Part shown: piece by piece, positions 41,055-59,708 of the stretch
Layout of the letters: every line of letters starts with the position of its first letter
Numbering within the stretch: the stretch's first letter is position 1
From: Candidatus Melainabacteria bacterium 17Bon1m
Lineage (GTDB): Bacteria; Cyanobacteriota; Vampirovibrionia; Obscuribacterales; Obscuribacteraceae
Reading direction: 5' to 3'
Length of the DNA stretch: 64,000 bases
NCBI GenBank assembly: GCA_032128875.1
Contig: JAVLKG010000003.1
Span: 824,974-888,973, forward strand
The notes under the pieces: model-generated
Seen by the model: only the letters and a program-made list of their open reading frames with translations
Told to the model about the DNA's origin: nothing
Databases searched by the model: none
Position numbers and translations under genes: made by a program

Positions 41055-41138
41055 CTCGAAAGCCCTCAAAGAGGCATTTGTTTTAATCGATGTAACTTAG
41101 TGTAGATCAGGCTTGAGCGATTTTGCTCGCGGCGGCGT

Positions 41139-43724: not shown

Positions 43725-45551
43725 CTACTCTTTTTCCACTTCTCTCAGTTTCTTCATGACCTTTTCAATGTCTTTGGCGTCAGCTCCCATCTTCTGCATG
43801 CATTCCACAAGCTTTTTCAACGGCATCACCAAGTGCGGAGCTACCGTTGTCGCTTCTTTCCAACTGGACGCGGCACCTACCCAGTTACCCGCGGCTTCTT
43901 GTTTCTCGGCTTCTGCTTTGAATGGCTGAATCCGTGAAAGATCGACCTGATTCATCGCATCTTTTGCATCTGGGTCTTTTAAATTGAAAGCCATGCGATA
44001 TGCGACAGAAGCTTCATCAAGATTTCCTTTCTTTTCGTTAGCTCGTCCGAGATAGAACCAAGCTCTAGCGTCTTTAGGGTCTTTCTCAATTAAAGCGTCC
44101 GCTTCCTTTTTAGCCCCATCGCTATCATTTGCGGCCATCTTGCTTTCGATAGGAATCAGCCGTCTGGGGTCCAGAATTTTTTCCAGTGGAGCAGTCGCTA
44201 TCGGTGGAACACTCGCTGCAGCGACAGCGCCACCACCTGCGGGGGCGCCAGGTTTGGCTCCAGCGGCACCCGCTACAGCCCCCGCTCCAGCTATTGCTGG
44301 CGCCGGTCCGCCACCCAGGCGGCTTATGCCTTGAAGCAAATCGGGATGTACATGTGGATTGATTGATGCGGCTGCTTGATACGCTTTAAGCGCAGTCGCT
44401 TTGTCGCCTTGCTGCTCCTTACCCCTGCCGTATATGAAGAGCATTTCCGCATCTTGGTTGTTTTGACGAAGGATGTCTTCGGCTTTTTGCAAAGATGTAG
44501 CCAGCACTGCCGGCGGTGTCGCAGGGTTCATGACCACGGCCAGATGATAAGAACGGCGAGCCTTGGCCAGCTGAGGCGAATTAGGGTTTTTCTTCCAGCA
44601 TTCTTCGAATTCCATTTTTGCGTGTTCGAAGTCGCCTGATAATTGATAGGCACCGGCCAACATCAAATGGTTGTCGAATGAACCATTGATGGAGACAGCT
44701 TCACGAGCGACTTCTTTAAGTCCTTGTATGGCGTCCGAATAGGCCGGATTCAACGTAACTGCACGGCGATATGAAACAGCAGCATTCTGAAGACGCTTCA
44801 AGCCTGTCTGACGGTCACCTCTGTCGCGCGCTACTTTTGCGTATCGCCAAAGGGTGTCGCCCAACATCGTATGGCACTTAGCCTGTTCAATCTTGTCCTT
44901 CCAGGGTTTGTTGATGGCAATCTTCAGTTCTTCAAATGCAGCTACGTCTTGTCCGTCCTTTAGAAGAGAGCGGGCTAAATCGGCGTGGCTTGTGCCATCG
45001 TCAGTCATACGGCAAACTTTTCTGTATTCGACTTGTGCCGTGCGGAAACGTCCTTCTGTTTCGGCAGTTTCTGCTATCTGGTGGCGAACATTCGGGTCAT
45101 CGGCGTTTTTCCCGGATGCACGCAAGCACTCATCAAGGTTTCTGTCCGCCACTGCGTTGGCGGGGTCGGCGAATAGAGCCTTTCTATACTGGACCATTGC
45201 TTCGTAGTATTTTTTCTTCGATGCGAGCATATCGCCATAACGAAGACAGGCACCAGATAAATTGATTTTGAATTGTTCGTTATAAGGATCGCCTTCAAGC
45301 GCAATCTCGTGCTCGCGTATGGCATCAGCCCAGAGATTCTTGCTCCCCAGCTCAACTGCACGGTTGTTGTGCTCGAGCGGGTTTGTCGGGTTCGGCGTTG
45401 ACAGCATCACTCCGCCACCGCCGCCTCCTCCTGACGGAGCCGCACGTCGAGCGCCTTTAGCTAGACATTCGGGTTGGGCCCATATATAGGAAAGCGAAAG
45501 AGACAAACACAGAACGGCCGCAAGTTGCTTCTTGGAGCAGCTCAGGCTCAT
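43725..45551 (-). CDS. Exported multi-TPR protein (start approximate)
   Basis: Signal peptide, TPRs, Gly/Ala/Pro linker, further TPRs. Confidence 0.85.
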   Translation of the reverse strand: MSLSCSKKQLAAVLCLSLSLSYIWAQPECLAKGARRAAPSGGGGGGGVMLSTPNPTNPLEHNNRAVELGSKNLWADAIREHEIALEGDPYNEQFKINLSGACLRYGDMLASKKKYYEAMVQYRKALFADPANAVADRNLDECLRASGKNADDPNVRHQIAETAETEGRFRTAQVEYRKVCRMTDDGTSHADLARSLLKDGQDVAAFEELKIAINKPWKDKIEQAKCHTMLGDTLWRYAKVARDRGDRQTGLKRLQNAAVSYRRAVTLNPAYSDAIQGLKEVAREAVSINGSFDNHLMLAGAYQLSGDFEHAKMEFEECWKKNPNSPQLAKARRSYHLAVVMNPATPPAVLATSLQKAEDILRQNNQDAEMLFIYGRGKEQQGDKATALKAYQAAASINPHVHPDLLQGISRLGGGPAPAIAGAGAVAGAAGAKPGAPAGGGAVAAASVPPIATAPLEKILDPRRLIPIESKMAANDSDGAKKEADALIEKDPKDARAWFYLGRANEKKGNLDEASVAYRMAFNLKDPDAKDAMNQVDLSRIQPFKAEAEKQEAAGNWVGAASSWKEATTVAPHLVMPLKKLVECMQKMGADAKDIEKVMKKLREVEKE

Positions 45552-45860
45552 GGTTTCGCGCGATTGTCTCGGGGATGAATTGAATTTCAATGAACGAATA
45601 TAAAAGGACATGTCTTTTGTTGATGCTAAATTCGGAAGTTGATGTTAGTTTGTGCCTACATCCCTTCAGGATGTTTGTTCCTTGCTGGACCTGGCTTTAT
45701 TCAAATTCGGGCTGGTAAGTCGTTACTAAATCCGTCTTTTCTTTGATTTCCCGGTAGCGCTCTTATAAGTGCGCATTATTACCCGGATTTCATTTTAGCG
45801 ATGGTTGTATATTTGGCACAATTTTTTTTGTTGGCAAGAGGCTTTTCCCTGATGCCCGAA

Positions 45861-45884
45861 AAAGTGTTGTCTAGACAACACTTT
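45861..45884. promoter_or_regulatory. Perfect 24-bp palindrome AAAGTGTTGTCTAGACAACACTTT, candidate operator
   Basis: Exact self-complementarity; in a divergent intergenic region about 25 bp upstream of a TTGACA hexamer (45909-45914). Confidence 0.65.
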
Positions 45885-46165
45885 CCCCCACCAGAGCGAA
45901 GTTTGTTATTGACAATGGTGCCCCAAACAATTAAAAATTAGTCATTTCGCAGGCATTTTTGCCCAATTTCGCCCCGATTCACTAAAGGGAGATTAATTCG
46001 CTTTTATTCTGTTAGTATGAAACCAAGATCACATATATAGCCTCTAAGTATTTTGGTATCTCTTTTTTGTTATTTGGCGTTTTCTTACTAGGCAAAAGAG
46101 GCATGTGTTCAGAGAGGGCTCGTAGAGCCCGAGATAGATATCTCCCTTGGGAGGGATATTTAGTA

Positions 46166-47041
46166 ATGACAAAGCCTGCGCCACTTTTGGCAGCATTTAT
46201 CGTTTTGGGGCTTACGGTTCCAATGGCATACGCTCAGCTTCCGCAGACGAATATGGGCAAGTACGTCCACAAGCCGGGCGACAACCAGTATGACAAAGCC
46301 GCGCAATCAGAGCGGCATCCACCGCCCCCACCTCCCGTGACTCGATTCGCGACAAGCGGCGGAGGAGGCGGAGGTTACATGTACCGCCCAAAACCAAAAC
46401 CACGTAAGCCAGACCCTTCAATAGAACCAATCGCCTCAGACGAGCCTGTGCCGCCTGCGGGCTTTCCAGTTTTACCGGAAAGATTGGAATTGCCCATCGC
46501 TATGGGTAGCTGGGGAGGAGCTGGAGGCGGCGGTGGTGGCGGCGGCTCCTGGAGCGGCGCCCCTCAAGGCGGCGGTGCCAGCGACGACGGACCGCCCAGA
46601 ATGCTTTCTAAGAAGCAAGGCTACGGGCACTTCGAGCCTGGCGCTTTCATTCCGAAGAATCATAAGTCCGGATACTACAAGTGCAACGAGGTGACTCCTC
46701 CGCACAAGCAAGTCTCCGACCAGATCATGACCGGCAACGGTGGTGGCGGAGCTGTACCTGGTTTGGGTGGACCGCCCAGCCCGGCAGGAGCTCTTAAATC
46801 GTTGGGCAGAGAGCCCAAGTTGAACGATCGCGAAGATGGCGCCACTGCTCCGGATGCTCCGCAGCCGGTGGTGATCAATCAGTCGACGACACAAGACCTT
46901 TCACTTCCTGAGGATGATTTCTCAGGCAGCTCGGCAAAACGTCCGAGCAAGGTTGGCAGAAAAATGAGGCAGGTAGGTCGAAGAGTTGTTTCTCCAATCA
47001 ACTCGGCATCACGCAGATTTACCGGAATAAGTTTGTTCTAG
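46166..47041 (+). CDS. Exported Gly/Pro-rich hypothetical protein
   Basis: RBS GGAGGG, signal peptide ending AYA-Q, low complexity. Confidence 0.75.
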   Translation: MTKPAPLLAAFIVLGLTVPMAYAQLPQTNMGKYVHKPGDNQYDKAAQSERHPPPPPPVTRFATSGGGGGGYMYRPKPKPRKPDPSIEPIASDEPVPPAGFPVLPERLELPIAMGSWGGAGGGGGGGGSWSGAPQGGGASDDGPPRMLSKKQGYGHFEPGAFIPKNHKSGYYKCNEVTPPHKQVSDQIMTGNGGGGAVPGLGGPPSPAGALKSLGREPKLNDREDGATAPDAPQPVVINQSTTQDLSLPEDDFSGSSAKRPSKVGRKMRQVGRRVVSPINSASRRFTGISLF

Positions 47042-47060
47042 GTTTTTCCAGATACTAATC

Positions 47061-47083
47061 GGCTGCCGGAAGTCCGGACAGCC
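47061..47083 (+). other. Intergenic hairpin
   Basis: GGCTG-CCGGA-AG-TCCGG-A-CAGCC; no U-tract. Confidence 0.4.
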
Positions 47084-47110
47084 AATGGCTCGGGGGAAGG
47101 AGTTCTCAAA

Positions 47111-47797
47111 ATGGCTAAGTTAGTAAAAACAATGAGCTTGATAGTGGCAGCCAGTGCGTCCGTGGCTGTTTGCGCTGCACCATCAATGGCACAGGGTTTC
47201 AAAATCGATCAAAGAAAGCTGGACAAGACCACTTTCTACAGCGCGCCAAGACAAATGCAAATCTTGGACGAACGCCCGATCATCAAAGATTTCCGTGAAG
47301 CACCACAAGCCCAGCAGCAAATTGAGTTGCCACCTGGACCTCAAGGTTATGGTGGTGGCGGCGGCGGTGGCGCCGGCGCATTGCAAGGCGGCGGACCCGG
47401 CGGCGGACCGAATGGCGGTCCATTGCAAATGGGTGGACCAAGCGTGCAACCCAGAACCAGCAACGGCATGATGCCCAATATGGGTAGCTTGCCTAAAACA
47501 GGTTTTGGTCAGACAAATATTCCGGCACGCGGCATGGGACCGAAAGGACCTTTGGCAGATGCAACCAGCACCAACCGTTTGATGGGCAAAATGATGACTC
47601 CGCCCAAATCTCAAGGTGCTTCCGCCGGACCGGCTCGCGGCATGGCGCCGACGAAAGGACCGTCCAACGGTAATTATGCAGGACCGGCTGTTTCGTCCTA
47701 CAGCGGCGGATACGGCAATGGCTCGGGCGCCGGATTCGGCGGCAGCTCGTCCCGCACGGATACATCGGTTAGAGGAAGTCTTTTGAAGAGAAACTAA
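47111..47797 (+). CDS. Exported Gly/Pro/Met-rich hypothetical protein
   Basis: RBS AAGGAG, signal peptide ending SMA-Q. Confidence 0.75.
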   Translation: MAKLVKTMSLIVAASASVAVCAAPSMAQGFKIDQRKLDKTTFYSAPRQMQILDERPIIKDFREAPQAQQQIELPPGPQGYGGGGGGGAGALQGGGPGGGPNGGPLQMGGPSVQPRTSNGMMPNMGSLPKTGFGQTNIPARGMGPKGPLADATSTNRLMGKMMTPPKSQGASAGPARGMAPTKGPSNGNYAGPAVSSYSGGYGNGSGAGFGGSSSRTDTSVRGSLLKRN

Positions 47798-47833
47798 TAC
47801 ACTCACAAGCTAGAAAGCGCACACCACCCCCTT

Positions 47834-49822
47834 ATGCAACACACCCAAACAATTTCCAAATTCGCAGCGCTTGCCCTGACGCTGGCTTTGACTGGCTGTG
47901 CCAGACAAGAAGCCGGCAGCGGCGGCGCCTCTGCGCAAGGAATTGAGCAAGTGCAGGGACAAGGGATTTTGAACGCTTTGAGACCGAAAGCGGATCCCTC
48001 GATGGTGGAGCGTATTCGCCAGGAAGACGCAAACAGAATGCAGCAGGCGGCCCTCGCCCAGCAGCAGATGAACCAGCAAATGTCCGAGACTGACGGTTCC
48101 GGAAGGATCCTTCCTAAAGTCTCGATGGAGCCCATTGCTCCCCCGGCTGAAGAAGTTGCCTCAGCCGGTGCGGGCATGAGTGTGTCGGCTGATTCCGGTG
48201 CTTACACACCAAGCACTTCCGGCGCCGTTCCTCAAGCAGCAGGCATGACAGCGACTCCGGCTACTGCCAGCTATGGCAGCTACCAGGCATCGCAAGTGCC
48301 CGCTCCTCCGTCCGGTGCTCTCGGCGGCGGATTGGTTCCGCCACCACCAGCAGTGACGCTATCAACGACGGCGCAGACGACAGTCGCTAGCAACCCTGGT
48401 GCAGATCCGAATAATCCGTACGGAAATCCATATGGCAATCCGTATGCCAATCCATACGGCAACCCTTATGCCAATCCGTATATGAACCCATACGGTATAC
48501 AGTATCCGCAGCAGCAAGCGCAGCCCGCTGGTGACGGCGCCCCTCAAAGACCGGCTTTGTTTGGGTCTGGTAAGCGCACGCCGCGCGAAGAGTCTGAAGA
48601 AGATCCGGGCGCTCGCGAAAAAGCCAAGAAATTCGCCAATTTCGTGCCGATCACGCCGACCGGCATGGAAGCTCGCTCTCCTTACAAACAAAGAGACGAC
48701 TTGAGAGTGCTCTGGAAAGGTGCCATCGGCTCTGGAAGCTTGGGTGCCTGGTCTCAGAAAGACCCTAACATCGCCGCCTCTCTATCTCGTATCGATGTCG
48801 GACTGCCTGGTGAGTCGACCAAAGGTTCTTTCAGCGTCGGACCAAGACAAGTAGATGCAGTGTTCAAGCGGGTTTTCGTTGATAAGAGAATACAGCCTCA
48901 GCTGGTAAAAACTCAAAACGAAATGGTCCAGAGCTACTACCGTTATCTGTATTCATATAACCGATTTGCATTGTCTCAACAGACTGTAGCAGCAAGAAAA
49001 CAGGAAGTTGAAGTTGCCTCGTCGCACGCCGAACAACAAAGAGCGGCAGCCGATCTATCTCAAGCACAAAGTGAAGCAGACTCTTCAAAAGAAGACATGC
49101 GCTCGGCTCAGTTGGAGCTCGCTGCCGTAGCTGGTCCTCAAGCAGCTCGTGCAGTAATTCAAAAAGTGTCAGGTGTTTCGCCCACTATCGAATCGCTGGC
49201 TCAAGCCATGCCGGCACCGGAAGCCGCTCCGCAAGGTGGCGGATTCAATGTGCTTGGTTCGATGGGCAGCCTCTTTGGTTTCAACAAGAAAAAAGCGGAA
49301 GAAGGACAAGCTCCTGAGCCGGTCAAAGCCGCCAAACCAGATGAAGGCAAGAAAGAGAAAAACGCCGGCAAAACCAAAGAGAAAGAAACTAAAACCAAGA
49401 CAGCAAGCAAAGAAACCAAGCCCAAGAAAGGCGGCAAAGCCGAAGTAGCCCAAGGCGACCTCGAGCCTGCACCGTCCAAAGGTGAGTCACCCAGCGCCGC
49501 AGCACAGGCAGAAGCTCCGGCAGCATCGGACGGCATCTCCTTTGAACTCAAAGGCAAAAATATCAGCGCGCGCAAGAGCGTGCTAAATGTTTCTATTCGC
49601 AACTCGTCTGACAATGCTTTCAGCTTCAGCCCCGACGATATCTCCGTCCAGGAGGGCAATCAGAAGCTTTCGGAAGCAGCGATGCGCGCCGAATTCGACT
49701 CCACCAGCATTGCGCCAAATGGGGAAGTCAAAGGCACCATCACGATTTTCGGTAGACCCTGGAATGACAGGTTGACCATATCACTGTCAGACGGACAACG
49801 GAGCATCCATATGAAACGTTGA
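47834..49822 (+). CDS. Lipoprotein with NPY(G/A) repeats, TolC/OEP-like helical segment and C-terminal Ig-like domain
   Basis: Lipobox LTGC; segment VQSYYRYLYSYNRFALSQQTVAARKQEVEVA; C-terminal LNVSIRN...FSFSP...IAPNGEVKGTITI. Confidence 0.65.
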   Translation: MQHTQTISKFAALALTLALTGCARQEAGSGGASAQGIEQVQGQGILNALRPKADPSMVERIRQEDANRMQQAALAQQQMNQQMSETDGSGRILPKVSMEPIAPPAEEVASAGAGMSVSADSGAYTPSTSGAVPQAAGMTATPATASYGSYQASQVPAPPSGALGGGLVPPPPAVTLSTTAQTTVASNPGADPNNPYGNPYGNPYANPYGNPYANPYMNPYGIQYPQQQAQPAGDGAPQRPALFGSGKRTPREESEEDPGAREKAKKFANFVPITPTGMEARSPYKQRDDLRVLWKGAIGSGSLGAWSQKDPNIAASLSRIDVGLPGESTKGSFSVGPRQVDAVFKRVFVDKRIQPQLVKTQNEMVQSYYRYLYSYNRFALSQQTVAARKQEVEVASSHAEQQRAAADLSQAQSEADSSKEDMRSAQLELAAVAGPQAARAVIQKVSGVSPTIESLAQAMPAPEAAPQGGGFNVLGSMGSLFGFNKKKAEEGQAPEPVKAAKPDEGKKEKNAGKTKEKETKTKTASKETKPKKGGKAEVAQGDLEPAPSKGESPSAAAQAEAPAASDGISFELKGKNISARKSVLNVSIRNSSDNAFSFSPDDISVQEGNQKLSEAAMRAEFDSTSIAPNGEVKGTITIFGRPWNDRLTISLSDGQRSIHMKR

Positions 49823-49826
49823 CCCG

Positions 49827-52535
49827 ATGAGAGATGAAGCGTTTGCAGATCCTAGACCGCGTGAAATTACTAGACCAACGCTCAATCAGGTAGTTTTGAT
49901 GAATAAGATGTCGAGCCAATTCAAACTGGTTACACTGGCAAATGGCCAAGCGCGAGCAGCAATCGCGCTTTGCGTGCTGTTTGCAGTTGCGATATTAGCC
50001 CTGCCGGCATTCTCGCAGGCTAATACTAATCAGTTTTTCCGTAATGCCGAAGGCACTATGGATGACTCCAACAACTCTACCGCGCAAACCATCCGCGATA
50101 TGGCTTGCTTGCGCTACAAGTGGCTGGACATCAACCGCAGATACGATCAACTGCGCACTATCAACGAGCAAGCGCCTACGACCACACCGTCAAGAAGACA
50201 AACGATTCCTGAAAAACGCGAGGAATTCATCACCGACGGACGCTCGGCAAGACAGCCACAAGCCGGCGAAACAAGAGTAAAAGAAACTGCTGATTCTACT
50301 GCGCAAACCAAAGTTCTCGCATACGACTCCTGCTTCGTTCCTTGCGGCAGCCCGGTCGGCTGGTTCTTGCAAGACGCAGAAGCCTGGAAGTTTCCCAAAT
50401 ACACAGCCTACGGTATTCCTTGCTATGTCCAGCCCCGCATGGAGGCCATGGACAAAGTTAAGACGACCAGAGACGAAGCCATCTTCGAGAAAGCGACAGG
50501 CTACAACCCGCCTGGTATGGGCCGTATCACCACGTTCGGTCTGCCGATGTCTGATACGCAATATCAGTTGATCGACAGAGAAAATAATAACCGGATGCTC
50601 GAGTTGCTTTCCGACCCCGAGCGCTTCATGTGGGCAGCTTCGGTAACCGGTCAGATGATGAACGGTTCCGGCGCCAACAGCCTTGCCGGTGTTGCAGAAA
50701 GTGCTTTCGACAACGCCGCCGCCCGGATTATTCAAGGTGACTCCACCAATTCGTTGATCAACCTTGCTAACGAAAATTCGGGGACCGGACCGAATCTCGG
50801 TTCTTACTATCGCCAAGTTTCCGATGCAGTGAGACAAGTTCAAATCATGTACCACCAGGTATATGTGCCGCTGGCAATTCTTTTCCTTTTGCCGGGCGCC
50901 GTCATCACGCAAGCAAAATCCATTGTGGCAGGCGGTTTTGCGCTGAGATCACCTGAAGCTCAAAGTCCATTCGATGGACTGTTGCGCTCCTTCGTCGCTA
51001 TTTTCCTTATCCCTGCGACTCAATTGATTGTCAGTTATGCAATCGACGTCGGCAACTCGATGGCGTATAGCGTTTACGATCCCTGGGTCAATATAGACAG
51101 AGTCAAAGAGTGGACTCACCAGCTCAGCTACAACAACAATCCACGCACAAATTACGACAACAGTATTTTGCCTCCTGAGCAAGGCGGCCAAAATCAGAAC
51201 GGACAAAGTGCCTGGGATAGAGCATTATCGGGCGATGTTTTCGGTGCGATCTTGCAATTCGTTATGGACTTGTTCGGTTACGGAGAAGGTTTGGGCGGAA
51301 ACGTTCCAGAAACCGTGACGATGGAAGAGCGCAATTCATGGCTGTCATCTATGTTGGAAACAGCTTTCAACTGGATGATGTGGGGTATGTCGCAAGGACT
51401 TATTATCCTGACGGCATTCCAGCTCGTCTTTATGTGCTACCTCTTCTTGCTTGGACCTCTGGCCGCTGCATTCTATGCTTGGCCGGATTTGCAGAATGAC
51501 GGCAACCAAAAGCTATTCCGTGGTGTTTTCGGAAGCTGGGTCAATGCCGTGATTTCGCTTGCTCTGTGGCGCTTCTACTGGATGGTGATTTTGGCCATCA
51601 TGACTCAGCGCCTCATCTACATATCGCAATCGCGGACGGCGACCAACTTACAGTGGGAAGTTGCTGTCTTCACGTGCTTGCTTGGACTGATGCTGCACGT
51701 GCCGTTTAGTCCGTTCAAATTCGACCCGGCTGCCGCGCTGGAAAAAGTGGAGAAATTCGCCAATAGCATGGGCGGCAGTGGCGGCGGTGGAGCCGGAGGC
51801 GGCGGTGGCGGTGGTGCCGGCGGCGGTGCCGGAGCCGGCGGTGGCGGCGGAGGCGGCGGCGGAATGCTGCAGCAGATGGCCAACCAGATCCAAAGCTCCA
51901 ATATGCCTGCCGGTGATAAACAGCAAGCCTTGCAAGCAATCAACCAGACTTCGGTCGGCTTGAATGCCTTTAGAGACGGACGTTTCGGTGGCTACGACGC
52001 CTTCAATGGAGGCGGCGGTATCAACATGGGCGGTGACCAGGGACAGGGAACCGGCCAGGGCCAGGGCACGGGGCAGGATATAACCCCACCTCTGGTCAGT
52101 AATCAAAATACGGCAAACATCAATGCAGCACTGGCCAGTAATGCGATCATGCCTCCGTCTTCGACAGGAATGGATACAGGCACTGGCACTGGCACTGGTA
52201 CCGGTACCGGCGCAGGCGTAGACCTGGCCGCCAACCGCGGACCGACATCCTCACCCGCCGATGCATCCGAAACTGGTTCTCGCATCAACCCAGGAGTTCA
52301 ACTTGCCGGTTACGTTCAATCGGCACAACAAAACGTCCAGGACATTGGTGCTCAATTGCGCGGTGCCGGTATGCCTGAGCAGCAAGTGCAAGACTTCATC
52401 ACCAAGAATAATCCGCAGCAAATGATAGCGGCGCTCGATCCTCAGGGCAGCGGTTTCTTCCCTTCCGGTGGAGGTGATGACAGCGGCCCGAGACGACAGG
52501 ATCGAAGACCAGATGATGACTCTGATACCGCCTAG
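49827..52535 (+). CDS. VirB6/TrbL-like polytopic membrane protein, paralog 1
   Basis: Periplasmic N-region, about 6 TM helices incl. LLGPLAAAFYAWP...FGSWV, Gly-rich C-tail; near VirB4. Confidence 0.6.
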   Translation: MRDEAFADPRPREITRPTLNQVVLMNKMSSQFKLVTLANGQARAAIALCVLFAVAILALPAFSQANTNQFFRNAEGTMDDSNNSTAQTIRDMACLRYKWLDINRRYDQLRTINEQAPTTTPSRRQTIPEKREEFITDGRSARQPQAGETRVKETADSTAQTKVLAYDSCFVPCGSPVGWFLQDAEAWKFPKYTAYGIPCYVQPRMEAMDKVKTTRDEAIFEKATGYNPPGMGRITTFGLPMSDTQYQLIDRENNNRMLELLSDPERFMWAASVTGQMMNGSGANSLAGVAESAFDNAAARIIQGDSTNSLINLANENSGTGPNLGSYYRQVSDAVRQVQIMYHQVYVPLAILFLLPGAVITQAKSIVAGGFALRSPEAQSPFDGLLRSFVAIFLIPATQLIVSYAIDVGNSMAYSVYDPWVNIDRVKEWTHQLSYNNNPRTNYDNSILPPEQGGQNQNGQSAWDRALSGDVFGAILQFVMDLFGYGEGLGGNVPETVTMEERNSWLSSMLETAFNWMMWGMSQGLIILTAFQLVFMCYLFLLGPLAAAFYAWPDLQNDGNQKLFRGVFGSWVNAVISLALWRFYWMVILAIMTQRLIYISQSRTATNLQWEVAVFTCLLGLMLHVPFSPFKFDPAAALEKVEKFANSMGGSGGGGAGGGGGGGAGGGAGAGGGGGGGGGMLQQMANQIQSSNMPAGDKQQALQAINQTSVGLNAFRDGRFGGYDAFNGGGGINMGGDQGQGTGQGQGTGQDITPPLVSNQNTANINAALASNAIMPPSSTGMDTGTGTGTGTGTGAGVDLAANRGPTSSPADASETGSRINPGVQLAGYVQSAQQNVQDIGAQLRGAGMPEQQVQDFITKNNPQQMIAALDPQGSGFFPSGGGDDSGPRRQDRRPDDDSDTA

Positions 52536-52597
52536 AGTTTCCAGCGGCAGACAGGAAGCTCTCAAAGATTTACAGAACGCGTGAGGATGGATCTCAA

Positions 52598-55500
52598 ATG
52601 ATTGGAAGAAGAAAAACGGCATCAACGTTTAAAGCGCGGCTAACGCTAGTGCTGCTTCTCATCGGATTCGTACCGATAGCTGCCATGGCGCAATCGCCAA
52701 ATGTCGGCGCCGGCGGAGGCACGGGAGATTCTCGTGACGGCAACCCCGGTTCTGCCTCACTGACATTGAAGCAATTCTACTACCGGATGAAGAACGCCCA
52801 GACTTATTCCACCACCGAATATGGTGGCACCGACGTATTGCAGAACGTCGGAGGATCTCAGGGCATTTCCAGATTTACCAATGGTCTTAGCAATCTCGTC
52901 CAGGGCAATGTCCGCGGGGCACTTCAGGCTGCTACCGGTCAAGACGGTCGCGGTCCGAAAGAATCTGTCGGACCTGGTATCGTTAAAACCCAGTCTGGTC
53001 CTACTTTTGCATGGCCCGTGCCGGTGCCTCCCGGCATTCCTTCGACAGTGCCCACGAAGCGCGACGAAGGTATCAACAAAAACGAACTGAAGACTTTCGG
53101 CTATCCCGTTTCTGATACGCAGTTCCAGCTCATCCAACGCTACAACCAGAACATCATGCTGGAACAGCTGTCCAATCCGGAACGTTTCATGTGGGCAGCC
53201 AACACCTTGGGCGGCTTGTCATCGAACGCCGCTGCAAACTCAGCCAACAACATGGCTACCAACCAAGCAATCAGTGCAATTGATTTCAGTAAGAAATATC
53301 TGGTCAACTTTACTGCCGAACAAGGCAACGTATGGCACCGCCTGCGCGATCAATTGTTTATCCCGATGGCAATTCTCTTGCTTTTGCCCGGCGCAGTGCT
53401 TGCGCAAGTGAAGGCGATTGTTGCTCAAGGCTCGCCATCGTGGGCACAAGCAGATAGTCCTATTGAAGGTATTACCCGCTCTATTGTTGCTGTTTTCCTG
53501 ATTCCTGCAACCTTCCTTGTCATCAACTACGGTATCGACGTATCCAACTCGATCACGTTCACGATTGCCGATGAGTACAAGAGAATTTTTGGCACGGACA
53601 TGTATGAGGATGCGATTTGCCACGAGAAACGAGCGATGGCGATCAACCCGGCCAACCGCAAGGAAAACGCTATCCATGAGGAAGAAAGACCAGTCAATAG
53701 AGGCGGCTCGGTATGGTCGTCCTTTGAAGGCTTGAACTCGACCGTGCGCGAATATGACCCCTGCTTGGGCGTAGACAATACACGTGTACCTGACGAAAAC
53801 GTCGTACAAGCGAAGAACTTCAACCGCCTGGCTAAGGGGATGGCCAACACCGGATTGACCGCTGCCTGGAACATTATGAGTGCGTTCCAGATGGCTTATC
53901 TCTATTATCTGTGGTGCATGGGACCGATAGCAGCAGCCCTGTGGGTCTGGCCGATTGGACCGATGCGCGGTGCTCTCAGAAGCTGGATCGAAGGCGTTAT
54001 CACGCTGTGTTTCTGGAGCTTATTCTGGAACACCACTGTCTTGCTGCTTGCTTGCTTCAAGGGGGTCGGCGACGACGGTTCGGTTATCGTCACCGCTTTG
54101 AATACACTTGCAAACTTGTCGGTTAAGAAGGCATTCGACTTCGCTGGTTTGATCGCTGAGGCCGGTAGTGCGGCATCTGCAGAAATGCAGAAGTCCATGG
54201 CTGGTGGTGGCGGCGGCGGTGGCGGCAGTCGAGGCGGCGGTGGTGGCGCCGGCGGTGCTGGTGGGCAAGGTGGACAGGGAACACCTGGGCGCAGTGCAAG
54301 CGGACCGGGAGGCGGTCAAGGACTCGTTTCAGGACCTGGCTCTGGTCAAGGCTCGGGCGACATCGGTCAAGGTGGAGGAGCATTGGCTCTGTCGCCTGCC
54401 GGAGGCGATCTCACCAGTGGAGCTCTCACTCCTCGCGGTGGTGCCGACATCGATCCACTTACCGGACTGCCGAGAGACGGCAGTGTGCCGGGCGTAGATC
54501 CCGGCCTGCCTCCAGGCGAGCGCGGTACAAATATGGGTATGCGTGGAGGCGCCGACGCTACCACCGAAGCAGCTGCATTGGCGGCTCTGGGTGCTGCGGG
54601 CAGACCTCCATCCGACCAAGAGCGTCAGATGTTCGACAACGTCAAACGCATGGACGACGCCGGACACCCTGCTGCGACCGCACTTGTAGAATCGCTTTCA
54701 CGCACGCAGCCAGGCGATCTTGCCAAAGCGATGGACGGCGATGCCGATGCGGCTGCTCGTATCAGATCCGCAACCGGTATGGACGCCAAGACGCTCAACG
54801 ACGGCTTACGTGGAGACTCCGCCGCGATGATGACTGCAGCAGCAGTTGTAGGCGCTGCCGGATCAGCCGGGGCCGCCGGATCTCTTCTGTCTCGCGCAGA
54901 GCAAGGCGATGCTGGTGCCAGGGCACAATTGGAAAGCCGCACCGGTATCAACCCCGATACACTCATACGTGCTGCGCAGGGCGACCAGGGCGCGCAAATG
55001 GCTGTCATGGCGAGAGCCGGACAGGATGGATCCGTACAAGCTGCAGCCCAAGGCGGCGACCGAGTGTGCGCTGATGCGGTTCGTGCTGCAGAGATGACCT
55101 ACGCTCGCAACGGTGTCACCGGCGACTATACGCAAGTAGCCGCTTACGACCCGCAGACGGGTGTATTCTCAGCTGCGGACGCTCAAGGCAATATCTTGCG
55201 CAATGCTGATGGCACTGCCCAAATATCCTTCGACCAAGCTAGTGGTGGATATCAGACTAGAGACGGCGCGGGCGTTACCTACGACGCCGGCTCCGGACAA
55301 TGGCTCGCTCGCGACGCCAATGGTTCTGCCGCTGGTGGCATCGTCTACGATGTTAACGACGGGCGGTTTGCGGTTGCCGGAACAGGTGCTGCGGTCAACT
55401 ATGAAAATGGAAACTTCGTTGCCGCAGGTACCAACGGAAATGTTGTCTGGGATGCTCAAGCCAATCGCTTCCAGGACGGCGGCGGCAATGCTGTCATGTC

Positions 55501-57916
55501 CGATCCGGGCGGCTCTGGACAATGGTTCCGCGTGGCTCAAGATGGTCAGAGCATCGAGCGACTGGCCGGTGGAGCACAAGGACAGGGCAGCTGGGAAAGA
55601 GTTTCCGGTGCTGCACCGATGGAGGTCAAAAACGGCGAGGTCATCGCCGCAGGCACCAATGGCAATGTCGTGTTCGACACTGCGCAAGGCAGATTCGAAG
55701 CCAGAAATGTCGATGTCGGAGTGCAATACGACCGCGGTTCCAATCAATGGTATGCACAGGGCGCATCCGGTCAGGTCGCATACTCTGTGGACGCTGGTCA
55801 GTTCAAAGCCACGGGCACCAATGAAGGAGTCACGTATTCCGGTGGTCAGTGGTCCGTGGACAACACCGGCGGCCGCGTAGTTCTTGATGCGGCGCAAGGT
55901 CGCTATGAAGTGGCTGGAGGCAACGCTGCTGTAGCCTACGACAGAACCAGCAATGGTTGGGTTGCGGCGGACACCGGCGGCCAGATCAGATTCGACCGCC
56001 AAGACATGCGCTTCGAAAATAGTTCTGGAGCCGTCGCTGTCGCTGATCCCAACGGATCGGGCAGATGGTATGCCCCATCAGCTGATGGCAGTTCCGTCCA
56101 AGTGCTCTCGCCTGCCTCGAGCGGCTCGGCCACCTGGTCGGCCGCAGGAGCTGATGCGCCTGTTTCACTGCAAGGCGGAACATTCGTCGCACAAGGATCC
56201 GGCGGTCAAGTCTTCTACGATCAGCAAGCCGGTCAATGGGAATTGCGTCAGCCAACCGCTCAGGGTGGCTTCATCGATACCAATATCGCGATGGCTAGAG
56301 ACTCTGCATCGGGCAACTGGATGGCAGCCGGAACAGGAGGCCAGGTCGTTCTCGATCCTGCCTCCAGACAGCTGGAAATCTACGGCACCAATACGCCTGT
56401 TGCACGCGACAATACAGGAACTTTCGTTGCGGCCAACACCGGCGGTAGTGTCATTCTCGACACTCAAAATGCCGGCGGTCCTCGATGGGAAGTGCGCGGC
56501 GCCGATGTCGCTCTCACACCCACTCCTAGTGGACAATGGACGGCAGCGGACAGCCGCGGAGCGGTCGTTTGGGATGCTCAGCAAAATCGATTCGAGCAAG
56601 CCGGTACAAATGTGGCAGCTTACCGAGATCCAGGCGGTTCCGGTTGGTACTCCGTGGCAGCCAACGGCATGGTCACGCAGTTGCAGCCAGACAATCAGTG
56701 GAGATCGGTCGATCCGGCGACTGCGCCGATTCGCGTCGATCAAGGTGGTGTCATCAGCGCCGCTTCGTCCAACGGCATGATCACATTCGACCAACGCGAC
56801 AACCGTTGGGAGCTGCAAGGTGGTCAACCGGTTCAGTACGACTCGAGAACTCAGCAATGGGTCGCTCCGGAGACGGGCGGCCGCGTAGCCTACGACTTCA
56901 ACGACAGGAGACTGGAAGTGGTCGGCTCCAATGGTGCCACCACCAATGTGCCGGTAGTTTCAGACCCGAGCGGTCGCAGCTACTACGCCTTCGGTGCAAA
57001 CGGAGACGTAAGGCAGCTCGATACGACAGCCGGCTCGTGGAGACCACTCGATGCAACGTCGTCGGTCGGCTACACGCAAAGCGGACAGATCTACTCGACT
57101 GCATCCATCGCGCCAGGCGATGCAACACGTACTCCGCAGGTCATGTACGACACGCAACAGGGTGCATGGACTGTGGCGAACAACCCGAATCCATCAGCCA
57201 ACGGTGTAGCTGTAACGCAGTCTGGAAGCGGCTTCTATGCGGAAGGCACGGGACGGCAAATCGAATATGATTTGAACAACCGCCGCTTCGAGCTGGCTGG
57301 CTCCGACAGACCGGTCGAGTTTCAGCGCGGTACAGGATGGACATATGCAGGCACCGGTGAGCAGGTCGCACTGCGGACGCCGGACGGTGGATGGACTGCC
57401 GGAACGCACGCCTCTACAGACCCGAGCAGGGTCCAGCAAGGCTACGATCCATTCTGCAACCCGACTCACCACCAGGGCGGATACACACCTGATCCTACAT
57501 ACGGCCACAGATTCCCCGACTGGAGAGCCGACGTCGGTGAAATGCGTGGTGGAGAACACATGGATGTGAGAAGCCCTGATGTGAGCGCTCACATCGGACC
57601 TGGACATGCCCATGTCGACGTCCATACACCTGGCTTCCAAGCTCACGTAGACACGCCGACTGGCGGCATCATGGATGCTCCCAGAAGAATGGATCCGACA
57701 GGAGGCACTGCAGGTAAGGCCATAACAGCTGCCGGTGTCGGAGCCGCTATCTGGCAACAGTGGTCCAATATAAGCAATCGCATGAATCGCGGACAACAAG
57801 GACCGGCTCAGTCACTTCAAGATATGATGCGCAAGGGTGGAGGCTCGCAGCGCAAGAAGGACAACCGCAAAATAATCGGCTATGACGAATACGGCAATCC
57901 GATTTATAAAGACTAG
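52598..57916 (+). CDS. Giant VirB6/TrbL-like membrane protein, paralog 2, with long beta-hairpin repeat C-terminal region
   Basis: Membrane core clearly homologous to the preceding gene (MGPIAAALWVWP...LRSWIEG); about 750 aa of YD/WD..G.W/F repeats. Confidence 0.65.
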   Translation: MIGRRKTASTFKARLTLVLLLIGFVPIAAMAQSPNVGAGGGTGDSRDGNPGSASLTLKQFYYRMKNAQTYSTTEYGGTDVLQNVGGSQGISRFTNGLSNLVQGNVRGALQAATGQDGRGPKESVGPGIVKTQSGPTFAWPVPVPPGIPSTVPTKRDEGINKNELKTFGYPVSDTQFQLIQRYNQNIMLEQLSNPERFMWAANTLGGLSSNAAANSANNMATNQAISAIDFSKKYLVNFTAEQGNVWHRLRDQLFIPMAILLLLPGAVLAQVKAIVAQGSPSWAQADSPIEGITRSIVAVFLIPATFLVINYGIDVSNSITFTIADEYKRIFGTDMYEDAICHEKRAMAINPANRKENAIHEEERPVNRGGSVWSSFEGLNSTVREYDPCLGVDNTRVPDENVVQAKNFNRLAKGMANTGLTAAWNIMSAFQMAYLYYLWCMGPIAAALWVWPIGPMRGALRSWIEGVITLCFWSLFWNTTVLLLACFKGVGDDGSVIVTALNTLANLSVKKAFDFAGLIAEAGSAASAEMQKSMAGGGGGGGGSRGGGGGAGGAGGQGGQGTPGRSASGPGGGQGLVSGPGSGQGSGDIGQGGGALALSPAGGDLTSGALTPRGGADIDPLTGLPRDGSVPGVDPGLPPGERGTNMGMRGGADATTEAAALAALGAAGRPPSDQERQMFDNVKRMDDAGHPAATALVESLSRTQPGDLAKAMDGDADAAARIRSATGMDAKTLNDGLRGDSAAMMTAAAVVGAAGSAGAAGSLLSRAEQGDAGARAQLESRTGINPDTLIRAAQGDQGAQMAVMARAGQDGSVQAAAQGGDRVCADAVRAAEMTYARNGVTGDYTQVAAYDPQTGVFSAADAQGNILRNADGTAQISFDQASGGYQTRDGAGVTYDAGSGQWLARDANGSAAGGIVYDVNDGRFAVAGTGAAVNYENGNFVAAGTNGNVVWDAQANRFQDGGGNAVMSDPGGSGQWFRVAQDGQSIERLAGGAQGQGSWERVSGAAPMEVKNGEVIAAGTNGNVVFDTAQGRFEARNVDVGVQYDRGSNQWYAQGASGQVAYSVDAGQFKATGTNEGVTYSGGQWSVDNTGGRVVLDAAQGRYEVAGGNAAVAYDRTSNGWVAADTGGQIRFDRQDMRFENSSGAVAVADPNGSGRWYAPSADGSSVQVLSPASSGSATWSAAGADAPVSLQGGTFVAQGSGGQVFYDQQAGQWELRQPTAQGGFIDTNIAMARDSASGNWMAAGTGGQVVLDPASRQLEIYGTNTPVARDNTGTFVAANTGGSVILDTQNAGGPRWEVRGADVALTPTPSGQWTAADSRGAVVWDAQQNRFEQAGTNVAAYRDPGGSGWYSVAANGMVTQLQPDNQWRSVDPATAPIRVDQGGVISAASSNGMITFDQRDNRWELQGGQPVQYDSRTQQWVAPETGGRVAYDFNDRRLEVVGSNGATTNVPVVSDPSGRSYYAFGANGDVRQLDTTAGSWRPLDATSSVGYTQSGQIYSTASIAPGDATRTPQVMYDTQQGAWTVANNPNPSANGVAVTQSGSGFYAEGTGRQIEYDLNNRRFELAGSDRPVEFQRGTGWTYAGTGEQVALRTPDGGWTAGTHASTDPSRVQQGYDPFCNPTHHQGGYTPDPTYGHRFPDWRADVGEMRGGEHMDVRSPDVSAHIGPGHAHVDVHTPGFQAHVDTPTGGIMDAPRRMDPTGGTAGKAITAAGVGAAIWQQWSNISNRMNRGQQGPAQSLQDMMRKGGGSQRKKDNRKIIGYDEYGNPIYKD

Positions 57917-57923
57917 CAATTAG

Positions 57924-57956
57924 AGGAAAGGGCGGCATTGCGCTGCCCTTTCCTTT
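57924..57956 (+). terminator. Stem-loop after the giant gene (probable terminator or stabiliser)
   Basis: AGGAAAGGGCGGC-ATTGC-GCTGCCCTTTCCT with only a short T-run. Confidence 0.6.
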
Positions 57957-58141
57957 GAAAAAGTCAGCTAGGGACTGTACAAAACAAAAAAAGTCCATAC
58001 AATGCGGAAAGACCTATTTGACCATGGTCTTCCAAATTCAAGCAAAATAAGCAAGCCAAGCAAATAACATATGAAAAGCCGCAGGAGGAGAGGCATCTCT
58101 TTCCTGCGGGTATTAATATAGATAGATGGTGGTCAGAGTCC

Positions 58142-59161
58142 ATGGACATGTTGTTAGCTGAAGTAGGAGTCAGGTGCGATCGTTGCGGAACCTCATTTGT
58201 TTCGCGTCAATTGCCGACCTTTATTGATATCGGACATCGCAATTCGGAATTGCGCCAGGATTATCGCGGCTATCAGCCGATGATGGAGCAATACGCAATT
58301 ATCAGCTGTCCGAGTTGTGGGCGTGCCGATTGGTCTACCGAGTTTCCTCCGGTGCCTGGCACGCCTGTTTTGGCTCAAGCTTCCACCAGCGCGCATATGC
58401 AATACAGGCAGGCCGCGCTCGACAAAGAGCGCAATGCCGGCAGCATCAACTCCTTTAAGGCTGCAGTTTTTTATGTGCATGCCGCTTGGTGTGCCGACGA
58501 CAGCAAGGCGTTTCCGCAGGCTCGAGAGTACAGACGGCTAGCCGTAGAGTCTTATAAACGCTCGCTTTCCGACAATACCTGCCCTCAAGATTCACGCGGC
58601 GAGACTGAATATTTAATTGGCGAATTAATGCGCCGCGCCGGAGACTTCGAAGGGGCTCGCGATCATTTCCGCATGTGCATCGGGCGCTTGAATGCTCGAT
58701 TTGCATTTATGGCTCGAAAGATCATGCGCCTTTGCGAACAAGGCAGCACCGAGTCCATCCAATTCGAAGCCGACACCCTGATGCAGTCCTCCGTGGCCTC
58801 TTCCGGCTCGGCGGTAGGCGCTCCGCTGGGCGTTTCGGCTCCGGTAGCTCCGGCTGGCGCGCCGCCTAGTTCTGCACCGCCCAGCCCGCGTGCTTCATAT
58901 TCGGGACCGCCAGCTGGTGGCCCGCCTGGTTTTTCCGGCGCACCACCTATAGGGCAATCTCAGTCGTCTCATCAGTCTCAGCCGCCTCGTCAATCGCAGC
59001 AGTCGGTGCCTGCGGCTTCCCCGGGGGCTTCGCGCTCCTCGACCAATTTGCCAAGTTCTCCGGGCGGACCGCCGGTCGGACCGCCAGGGTCGAAAAAGGG
59101 CGACTCGAAGCCGAAAGGTCCTCCTACTCAGCCCCCGCCAGGCGCTCCGCCCTTGGCTTAA
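58142..59161 (+). CDS. DUF2225-like Zn-finger/TPR protein with Pro/Ser-rich tail
   Basis: CDRC...CPSC, AAWCADD, YLIGELMRRAGDFEGA. Confidence 0.7.
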   Translation: MDMLLAEVGVRCDRCGTSFVSRQLPTFIDIGHRNSELRQDYRGYQPMMEQYAIISCPSCGRADWSTEFPPVPGTPVLAQASTSAHMQYRQAALDKERNAGSINSFKAAVFYVHAAWCADDSKAFPQAREYRRLAVESYKRSLSDNTCPQDSRGETEYLIGELMRRAGDFEGARDHFRMCIGRLNARFAFMARKIMRLCEQGSTESIQFEADTLMQSSVASSGSAVGAPLGVSAPVAPAGAPPSSAPPSPRASYSGPPAGGPPGFSGAPPIGQSQSSHQSQPPRQSQQSVPAASPGASRSSTNLPSSPGGPPVGPPGSKKGDSKPKGPPTQPPPGAPPLA

Positions 59162-59218
59162 GTTTTCCAATCAAGGCAAAATGATGTTAGGTCCGAAACT
59201 GCAATAAGGAGTTAGTTC

Positions 59219-59620
59219 TTGGGTTACGTCCAGCGAGTGATCATCCTCAACAAGCCGCTTAAGGTGTTCGGTTTCGAACCCCGGCAGCTGATATTGCTAT
59301 CAGTTTGGGTTGTTTCCGGATTGATCATTGCCGGTCGCTTTCCTCAGGACTGGAAATTCCATAATTTCCCTATTGGCGTGTGGTTTTTCATCCTCTGGAT
59401 GTGCGGTGCCGTGGCTGTTGTTATGGGCACCCGACTGAAGCCCTTCTCTTGGTGGAAAAATATCCTCACGTACAGGTTGGGCTTGGCTCCTAATCTCTAT
59501 GTTTCACGCGCAGAACCCGCTCCGATCTATCCAGATGGGAATATAATTGAGGTTAAAAAAACTAAAGAAAACTTCTATGTCCAAGCTGAAAACACAACTG
59601 CAGACCCGGATGACTTCTAG
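59219..59620 (+). CDS. PrgI/VirB3-like two-TM protein
   Basis: KVFGFEPRQLILL start typical of PrgI; two TM helices; immediately upstream of VirB4; RBS AAGGAG, TTG start. Confidence 0.65.
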   Translation: MGYVQRVIILNKPLKVFGFEPRQLILLSVWVVSGLIIAGRFPQDWKFHNFPIGVWFFILWMCGAVAVVMGTRLKPFSWWKNILTYRLGLAPNLYVSRAEPAPIYPDGNIIEVKKTKENFYVQAENTTADPDDF

Positions 59621-59708
59621 AAGTCCGGTTTTTCAATTGGTCAGCGCCCAATCAAGTTCTTGAGACCGACCCGGCAGAACACCCAGGAAACCCGAGACAG
59701 GAAACCCA

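Follow-up and report, generated by a model that had tools for sequence, protein, structure and literature searches.

Introduction

Extended VirB6 proteins with repeat-bearing C-termini are already known, and the C-terminal domain of TraG, a protein of the F plasmid and SXT that is mentioned in PMC7648143, is implicated in mating-pair stabilisation and entry exclusion. The N-terminal domain of TraG is polytopic and VirB6-like, whereas its C-terminal domain is large and hydrophilic. In Rickettsiales, tandem VirB6 paralogs beside virB3/virB4, such as Anaplasma phagocytophilum VirB6-1 to -4, carry large hydrophilic repeat-bearing C-terminal extensions for which surface exposure has been proposed or shown, and VirB6 paralogs have also multiplied away from other vir genes (PMC7648143). 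In the VirB6 of plasmid R388 just two N-proximal helices lie in the membrane and the bulk of the protein is a periplasmic pentamer (PMC12857230), and DotA is described likewise, with its later hydrophobic helices in a periplasmic stalk (10.1101/2025.06.23.660953). According to a 2025 review, it is not known what the additional domains of an extended VirB6 do for the machine it belongs to (PMC12857230). Here we analyse a stretch of 64,000 nucleotides (the window) from Candidatus Melainabacteria bacterium 17Bon1m, an uncultured member of the Obscuribacterales (contig JAVLKG010000003.1, positions 824,974 to 888,973), and describe a 1772-residue protein encoded in it that is likely to be an extended VirB6 whose C-terminal part contains a new array of beta-hairpin repeats, predicted to be folded.

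In the literature on Melainabacteria type IV secretion, Obscuribacter secretion systems and extended VirB6 C-termini, supplements being outside the scope, we found no description of such a protein. A study of Vampirovibrio describes a T-type system and, in the sections drawn on here, does not mention VirB6 (PMC4451040).

Results

A VirB6/DotA-like core is predicted ahead of a 1250-residue appendage

The gene and its parts are as follows, with residues given in amino acids (aa) and the evidence in brackets.

52598-57916, + strand: whole gene, 1772 aa, putative extended VirB6/DotA-like protein, an 'A-type' member of the core family (open reading frame list, full-length orthologs, conserved synteny)
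52598-52693, + strand: signal-peptide-like N-terminus, aa 1-32, ending ...AAMA/QS (hydropathy scan; model helix 5-23; cleavage site read by eye)
53291-54145, + strand: predicted VirB6/DotA-like helical core, aa 232-516 (to ~525 in the composition layout)
54173-54517, + strand: Gly-rich linker, aa 526-640, 39% Gly (composition; lowest ortholog conservation)
54518-55123, + strand: Ala-rich region, aa 641-842, 24% Ala, probably helical (composition, conserved columns; outside the modelled parts)
55124-57400, + strand: beta-hairpin repeat array, aa 843-1601, 22-24 canonical units of ~18 aa plus degenerate ones (unit hidden Markov model, HMM; AlphaFold2, AF2)
55415-55717, + strand: higher-order module 1, aa 940-1040, VVWDAQANRF...DPGGSGQWF (pairwise alignment)
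55958-56260, + strand: higher-order module 2, aa 1121-1221, IRFDRQDMRF...DPNGSGRWY (z 27.5 against module 1)
56537-56827, + strand: higher-order module 3, aa 1314-1410, VVWDAQQNRF...DPGGSGWY (z 21.2 against module 1 and 16.3 against module 2)
56861-57187, + strand: higher-order module 4, aa 1422-1530, VAYDFNDRRL...DPSGRSYY, the most diverged (z 6.4-12.2)
57401-57682, + strand: His/Pro/Asp-rich segment, aa 1602-1695 (composition; poorly conserved; predicted local distance difference test, pLDDT, <50 where modelled)
57683-57913, + strand: C-terminal tail, aa 1696-1772, a short Gly/Ala-rich hydrophobic stretch and then a basic end (K 7.8%, R 9.1%)

Between the signal-peptide-like N-terminus and the core lies a hydrophilic region of ~200 aa, and the core itself is predicted to consist of a helical hairpin (helices 245-278 and 290-331), a loop insertion that carries a beta-hairpin (384-395) as well as the near-invariant Cys341 and Cys389, and long hydrophobic helices (404-448, 454-486 and 495-510). 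Using structural comparison of this predicted core with 48,161 chains, DotA was ranked first and TrwI/VirB6 second, both matches spanning the whole core, with 10% sequence identity in the DotA alignment; Foldseek returned no match to the core at E<=0.001. The predicted layout, a two-helix membrane hairpin followed by long hydrophobic helices, is that of the VirB6/DotA structural family and can be superposed on solved members. Likewise, the order of signal peptide, two-helix hairpin, disulfide-bearing insert and hydrophobic helices described for DotA (PDB 9ngy; 10.1101/2025.06.23.660953) recurs here. The large extra domain of DotA, however, sits between the hairpin and the hydrophobic helices, a place where our protein has an insert of just ~80 aa; its own large additional portion is C-terminal and predicted all-beta. 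TrwI, the VirB6 of R388 (PDB 7o3v), differs in being 342 aa long with no appendage and in coming from an MPF_T system that is complete and includes pilin, VirB5 and VirB7-11, while the difference from F-plasmid/SXT TraG is that no TraG model matches here and no similarity to its C-terminal domain was found.

We accepted the VirB6 reading because the top two matches are two solved VirB6-family proteins and the domain order is DotA-like. Furthermore, the protein has at least five predicted hydrophobic helices and a hydrophilic C-terminal part of 1250 aa, the features by which extended VirB6 proteins are recognised in PMC12857230, and core pairs adjoin both VirB4 genes of the genome, VirB6/DotA proteins being encoded together with VirB4 and VirB3. 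The preliminary description of this DNA, made from the sequence alone, had called the protein VirB6-like; predicted fold and gene context uphold that designation, and sequence models do not.

We also compared profiles of the core family, using hhalign, with a VirB6 profile built from nine MPF_T VirB6 proteins (R388 TrwI and eight plasmid homologs), and obtained 33.4 (probability 18.8%) with a 15-sequence core and 26.4 (3.6%) with a 138-sequence core, against 18.7 for the reversed control and 15.4-17.6 for ten block-shuffled controls. The match, weak and local, always fell on the 'GPI.AA.W.WP...F..W' stretch of the core family. Whole-protein neighbours of the ortholog P0006 in the Atlas, at 0.84-0.88, include TrbL_3 clusters and serve as leads only, and a tblastn search of the core against 72,556 plasmids gave no match at E<=1.

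The appendage contains an array of beta-hairpin repeats

An array of about 750 aa, made of units of the form V-x-(Y/W/F)-D-x3-(G/N)-x-(W/F)-x-A-x-G-T, had been proposed from the sequence at 55130-57410 (aa 845-1605). We seeded a unit HMM with 16 units picked by hand using a simple pattern and iterated it on the protein, which returned 24 units within aa 843-1601, 22 of them with a domain E<=0.01. The units are ~18 aa long, with the emitted consensus GTGGQVAYDTQSGRWEA, and are interspersed with degenerate ones; across the 24, the characteristic columns hold V/I in 21, Y/F/L/W in 22, D in 19, G/N in 18 and W/F/Y/L in 23. Both the units and their position were confirmed in this way, the boundaries moving by 6-10 bases to 55124-57400. 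The four higher-order repeats quoted in the preliminary description also proved real, as local alignments between modules scored 70-191 compared with 31-36 (standard deviation ~6) for shuffled sequences, with z scores for the module pairs of 27.5, 21.2, 6.4, 16.3, 9.7 and 12.2 (100 shuffles per pair). At the DNA level, Tandem Repeats Finder detected no tandem repeat in the array apart from a 23-nt scrap at 56538-56560, and the array repeats are thus old and diverged and not the result of recent slippage. The same program reported a 12-nt Gly-codon (GGY) run at 54206-54257, inside the Gly-rich linker.

The composition of the array is unusual, with 2 Lys in 759 residues (0.3%), no Cys and no His, 5.9% Arg, 28% N+Q+S+T and 9.4% aromatics; it has a net charge of -28 and is poor in Leu/Ile/Glu and rich in N/Q/S/T/G. 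Strong avoidance of Lys extends over aa 526-1695 (54173-57682), with 0-1.5% Lys against 3.5-8.4% Arg, and is followed by the Lys/Arg-rich tail; local G+C over the same interval is 0.58-0.61, compared with ~0.50 for the window. Outside the array, the Ala-rich region (aa 641-842) contains recurring 'GD..A' motifs, seen by eye, and among the closer orthologs identity over the last 77 aa is 80-97%. A C-terminal membrane anchor at aa ~1700-1722 was considered and dropped, the hydrophobic stretch there being just ~12-17 residues long and under the hydropathy threshold.

AF2 modelled the array, from an alignment of 9 sequences, as all-beta with 79 short strands, a mean pLDDT of 78.6 and a predicted template modelling score (pTM) of 0.60, with low confidence only at both ends. 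The array is therefore best described as a domain predicted to be folded, all-beta and built from hairpins. Searches for known families gave consistently negative results: Pfam at E<=10 showed no family at cut-off, with only Fascin (0.038), PF03527 RHS (0.23) and DUF5597 (0.28), far under their cut-offs, and no NCBIfam model matched. PF05593 (RHS_repeat) had 54 matches elsewhere in the genome and none in frame within the array at E<=10, and PF01473 (Choline_bind_1) had none on the array and a single match elsewhere in the genome (E 1.2). Genuine Rhs/YD-repeat genes lie on other contigs, in frames of 1908-3999 aa (C8:39-41.6 kb, C12:3.6-8.8 kb, C15:69-71 kb and C10:182-184 kb). Sequence and profile searches of the PDB with the array and the core found low-complexity or chance matches only (E>=0.56), the array profile giving none, and an Atlas search with the array alone (ortholog P0006) yielded no usable neighbour. 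No Rhs core-end motif was noticed in the protein sequence by eye, with no motif search made.

Foldseek against the PDB gave the array model many matches (E 4e-10 to 1e-7), among them the sensors BT4663/BT4673 with their tandem propellers, the YD shells of Rhs proteins and teneurins, and YWTD propellers, all with template modelling (TM) scores of 0.07-0.14 and a root-mean-square deviation (rmsd) of 22-32 A. From these scores and deviations the likeness to propellers and YD shells is local, and no global structural match to known folds was found. Kinship with adenovirus fibres, phage tail fibres and autotransporter-like proteins, which appeared in BFVD at E 1e-8 to 1e-4, was not accepted, the TM-scores being <=0.16. 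We propose the array as a candidate for a new repeat family, and its beta architecture may be new as well. This agrees with the earlier suggestion of a possibly new repeat family, which is supported by the lack of Pfam and PDB matches, the negative RHS_repeat and Choline_bind_1 results and the finding of only 8 relatives among 1.84 billion proteins; nor did the array match a described family already known fused to VirB6, and it is predicted to be structured. The accompanying comparison with choline- or glucan-binding solenoids is not backed by any match.

The array is conserved among orthologs

A word-indexed search found relatives in 11 clusters (1552-2336 aa, 42-99% identity), the named ones being from Melainabacteria/Obscuribacterales metagenome-assembled genomes, and exhaustive HMMER of 1.84 billion representative proteins returned only 8 relatives at E<=0.001, all of the same kind. 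Full-length orthologs are 1751-1785 aa long with 70-99% identity across the array, and nine species-genome loci carry the array protein with the same neighbours. The array is present in 16 of 107 Obscuribacterales genomes, with one copy in each, namely the genome of the window (G000) and 8 of 12 further genomes of its genus, the single genome of a second genus, and six genomes of a third genus at 27-32% identity. Within the genus, identity is 89-99% in the core, 70-86% in the array, 55-82% in the Gly/Ala linkers and 42-90% in the His/Pro segment, and the array shows gaps at only 0-5 of 759 positions. In a comparison of 11 sequences, its aromatic, Asp and Gly positions do not vary. Because conservation is high and gaps are few, the array behaves as a folded domain and not as a slippery low-complexity repeat.

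By profile, proteins of the genus have 19-22 units and P0009 and P0011, two longer relatives, have 26, with 7 in P0014 and 1 in P0016, so repeat number is stable in close relatives and differs between genera. P0011 has additional copies of module-3/4 type, and the hairpins of the distant P0014 and P0016 have drifted from the unit profile. P0014 (2480 aa) also runs beyond the usual C-terminus into a helical region, further hairpins and, at residues ~2358-2473, a phage tip-attachment protein J (GpJ) FNIII-A domain (PF24801, E 4.8e-7, 30.4 bits; cut-off 27 bits), and may be a fusion or a read-through of neighbouring genes.

The core belongs to a multigene family

The core has 19-20 matches in its own genome, from which we extracted 14 open reading frames of 450-1772 aa, mostly arranged as B->A pairs together with one six-gene array. 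Besides the pair in the window (49827-57916), the genome has B->A pairs at four further sites, and the family loci in G000 are C1:533285-545349, C1:809080-814005, C1:921121-925579 and C8:230502-236275. Members of the core family were found in 104 of 107 Obscuribacterales genomes (39 of 39 of high quality), with 2-22 matches in each, and the family profile matched none of 300 other genomes taken from across the phylum, a search in which such a long profile can miss weak matches. Among the best 120 of 171 relatives, no Pfam domain was present save one PF01391 entry (P0113), and none of 16 long members and paralogs had a Pfam match at E<=0.001.

The 117 family members that were fetched included none with three or more hairpin units. 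Their appendages are instead S/T/N/Q/D-rich low-complexity repeats and are highly variable. Judged by these sequence comparisons, the hairpin array is carried only by this ortholog group and appears as one structured solution among variable appendages on a conserved core. The family resembles the Anaplasma proteins in its tandem paralogs beside VirB3-like and VirB4 genes and in its large hydrophilic C-terminal extensions with repeats, but differs from them in three ways: there the TrbL/VirB6 domain is recognisable by sequence, whereas no sequence model matches here; there strain-variable tandem DNA repeats are found, whereas none exist at the DNA level here (PMC7648143 for both); and here the unit number is steady within the genus (19-22), with repeats predicted to fold into an all-beta domain.

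The gene lies in a type IV secretion-like cluster

The genes on either side of the array gene are the following.

46067-49822, + strand: three genes for secreted proteins or lipoproteins of 324 aa, 228 aa and 662 aa (LTGC lipobox), with no family match and the same order in orthologous loci
49827-52535, + strand: upstream paralog with a 'B-type' core, 902 aa, six transmembrane-like segments, ~33% identity to the A-type core
58142-59161, + strand: DUF2225 protein, zinc-ribbon/TPR-like (Pfam E 3.4e-11)
59219-59620, + strand: 133-aa protein with two transmembrane segments, in the VirB3 position just before VirB4 (position and topology; no family match)
59709-62546, + strand: VirB4/TraC-type ATPase, 945 aa (Pfam P-loop_TraG 3.5e-18, TraC_F_IV)
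62626-63635, + strand: two bitopic membrane proteins of 137 aa and 198 aa (no family match)

In NCBIfam the ATPase matched conju_CD1110 (4.7e-57), TraC-F-type (5.2e-55) and VirB4_CagE (3.6e-41), all under the equivalog cut-offs. A VirB8-like role for the two bitopic proteins is a guess. The 662-aa predicted lipoprotein (47834-49822) has consecutive NPYG/NPYA repeats, a middle part resembling a coiled coil and a segment rich in Lys, with no family match.

A second type IV secretion-like cluster, L023 (G000:C1:796000-815900), encodes a 1384-aa protein, a DUF2225 protein, a 112-aa protein, a VirB4, a 219-aa protein and a VirD4-like coupling protein (983 aa). Its VirB4 is 29% identical to that of the window, and a divergently placed B/A core pair adjoins it. 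The DUF2225 gene stands just upstream of the small transmembrane protein and VirB4 in both clusters (58142-59161; L023:5092-5835), an arrangement which suggests that its product is a conserved accessory part of the machine. Models for TrbC/VirB2, T4SS_pilin and CagX/VirB9 found no match at cut-off in this 93%-complete genome, and the TrbI/VirB10 model gave three sub-threshold matches in the genome, one of them in the window at ~40302-40832. Since the pilin and VirB9 models are negative and TrbI is weak, the machine is type IV secretion-like but far from canonical sets. No coupling protein is recognisable in the cluster of the window, and the VirD4-like protein occurs only in the second cluster.

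The TrbI/VirB10 match in the window (Pfam E 3.8e-4, 20.8 bits; cut-off 35 bits) belongs to a 385-aa protein (39912-41069, - strand) which is encoded ~5 kb upstream of the cluster, on the opposite strand, among genes for TPR proteins. DNA near-identical to 45500-64000 is present in runs labelled as plankton, drinking-water and aquifer metagenomes. Evidence for transcription from three runs labelled RNA-Seq was rejected, these having contigs of 37-53 kb that span all of 45500-64000, sharing their sample with a probable DNA source and resembling carried-over DNA.

Discussion

We are fairly confident that the protein is an extended VirB6 with a new folded array. A fuller interpretation, which adds that the array makes contacts or serves as a tether outside the cytoplasm, we consider somewhat more probable than improbable. 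The gene product would then belong, as its extended VirB6, to a type IV secretion-like machine that is chromosomal, divergent and specific to Obscuribacterales. Its signal peptide and ~200-aa periplasmic region would precede a core with the DotA/VirB6 layout, and if R388 and Dot/Icm are a guide, this core would build the central stalk or protochannel that sits above VirB3/VirB4. The remaining 1250 residues at the C-terminus would be a lineage-specific appendage, comprising flexible Gly linker, Ala-rich segment, 760-aa array and basic tail, and the stalk would bring the array to the periplasm or as far as the cell surface. In that location the array may contact or tether the cell envelope, either the cell's own wall or that of a target cell, as has been proposed for the C-termini of Anaplasma VirB6-3/-4 and F TraG.

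The array is probably extracytoplasmic. Composition of its kind, poor in Lys and Cys and rich in N/Q/S/T and aromatic residues, is associated with secreted beta-rich proteins, and the hairpins of P0014 beside a GpJ FNIII-A domain were also counted for this location. In the R388/DotA model the appendage would start in the periplasm, since it lies after the last hydrophobic helix. Comparable repeats are exposed elsewhere, as the C-terminal repeats of Anaplasma VirB6-3 and VirB6-4 are accessible to trypsin on intact cells (PMC7648143).

Several observations weigh against this interpretation. TrbL/VirB6 sequence models match neither the protein nor its upstream neighbour (Pfam at E<=0.1 or E<=10; NCBIfam), none of 15 scanned core paralogs matches any TrbL-type Pfam family at E<=10, PF04610 (TrbL) and PF19590 (TrbL_3) give nothing genome-wide, and the hhalign probability is only 3.6-18.8%. 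The AF2 model of the array, built on just 9 sequences, was read for its secondary structure and confidence values. Finally, hydrophobic segments read by hand point to an N-out protein with five segments and its C-terminus inside, and several paralogs are K-rich just past the last segment, which by the positive-inside rule would make the extension cytoplasmic.

The alternatives below partly overlap and are not all mutually exclusive. The hand-read topology and the K-rich sequence underlie the most probable of them, in which the architecture is the same and the core has five transmembrane segments in an N-out/C-in topology, but the appendage is cytoplasmic and serves as a platform docking substrates, ATPases or the DUF2225 protein. 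The C-terminus of A. tumefaciens VirB6 is reportedly cytoplasmic, five hydrophobic segments follow the signal peptide in our hand-read hydropathy profile, the fifth is strongly hydrophobic in B-type paralogs and is followed directly by K-rich sequence in several A-type paralogs, for example GKGGGKGGKGGKK, fitting the positive-inside rule, and the last 77 residues of the protein are basic. However, a near Lys-free, Cys-free array rich in N/Q/S/T/G and aromatics would be unusual for a cytoplasmic domain, the R388 and Dot/Icm structures place the later VirB6/DotA hydrophobic helices in a periplasmic stalk, and extended VirB6 C-termini are surface-exposed in Anaplasma (PMC7648143). We regard a cytoplasmic appendage as unlikely.

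It is improbable that the appendage is cargo, cleaved and then released or translocated into a target cell with the basic tail as its type IV secretion signal. The long flexible Gly linker separating core and appendage, the basic and well-conserved last 77 aa and the large excess of Arg over Lys throughout aa 526-1695 would suit such a function, and release of extended VirB6 C-termini has been proposed in Rickettsiales (PMC7648143). Yet no cleavage motif was identified, the cluster of the window has no recognisable coupling protein, and the tail is strongly different in more distant relatives.

We give equally little credence to the array being a diverged member of a known hairpin-repeat class, such as a YD/Rhs-type shell or tandem beta-propellers. 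Like YD/Rhs repeats (PF05593) and teneurin shells it consists of short beta-hairpin units with an aromatic-Asp...Gly signature, and the local Foldseek matches (E ~1e-9 to the YD shells; 4e-10 to 1e-7 over propellers and Rhs/teneurin shells together) and the PF03527 'RHS' hit on one unit (E 0.23) point the same way, as does the unit motif (aromatic-Asp, turn, Gly/Arg, aromatic), which we take to resemble the YD motif. It differs in having no PF05593 match, no global structural match and TM-scores <=0.10 to those shells (0.07-0.14 over all matches, with an rmsd of 22-32 A); moreover, PF05593 detects real Rhs genes in this genome and nothing in frame in the array, PF01473 detects nothing, and exhaustive HMMER returns the array's own family only. 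Just as doubtful is a core that is no VirB6 homolog at all but an unrelated lineage-specific membrane family which happens to lie near VirB4, making the type IV secretion reading wrong: no sequence model matches it and most of its ~20 matches in the genome lie away from VirB4 genes, but the top two of 48,161 chains are both VirB6-family proteins covering the whole core, B/A pairs adjoin both VirB4 genes, the domain order is the same as that of DotA (10.1101/2025.06.23.660953), and VirB6 paralogs away from vir genes are known in Rickettsiales (PMC7648143).

Returning to an extracytoplasmic contact device on an extended VirB6, one extension of this interpretation is speculative and, in our view, rather unlikely as a whole. 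In this order, where pilin, VirB5 and VirB9 genes are not recognisable, the machine could be a pilus-less type IV system in which the VirB6-like pentamer itself bears the extracellular contact device, with five arrays on Gly linkers forming a fibre or grapnel through or past the outer membrane, and the up to ~20 paralogs per genome, with their differing appendages, might be interchangeable tips that choose which cells or surfaces are engaged.

Against the background of known extended VirB6 proteins, what appears to be new is a large, conserved hairpin-repeat domain, predicted to be folded, that has no family or global structural match; an unannotated VirB6-like family that, on present models, is recognisable by fold only; and the expansion of this family across a whole order of non-photosynthetic relatives of cyanobacteria. 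The protein offers a case in which the extra domain of a VirB6 is large, conserved and predicted to be folded, not low-complexity, which should make it accessible to expression, structure determination and binding assays. It would also give an identity to an unannotated family, one that points to a lineage-wide and heavily diversified type IV secretion-like apparatus in Obscuribacterales.

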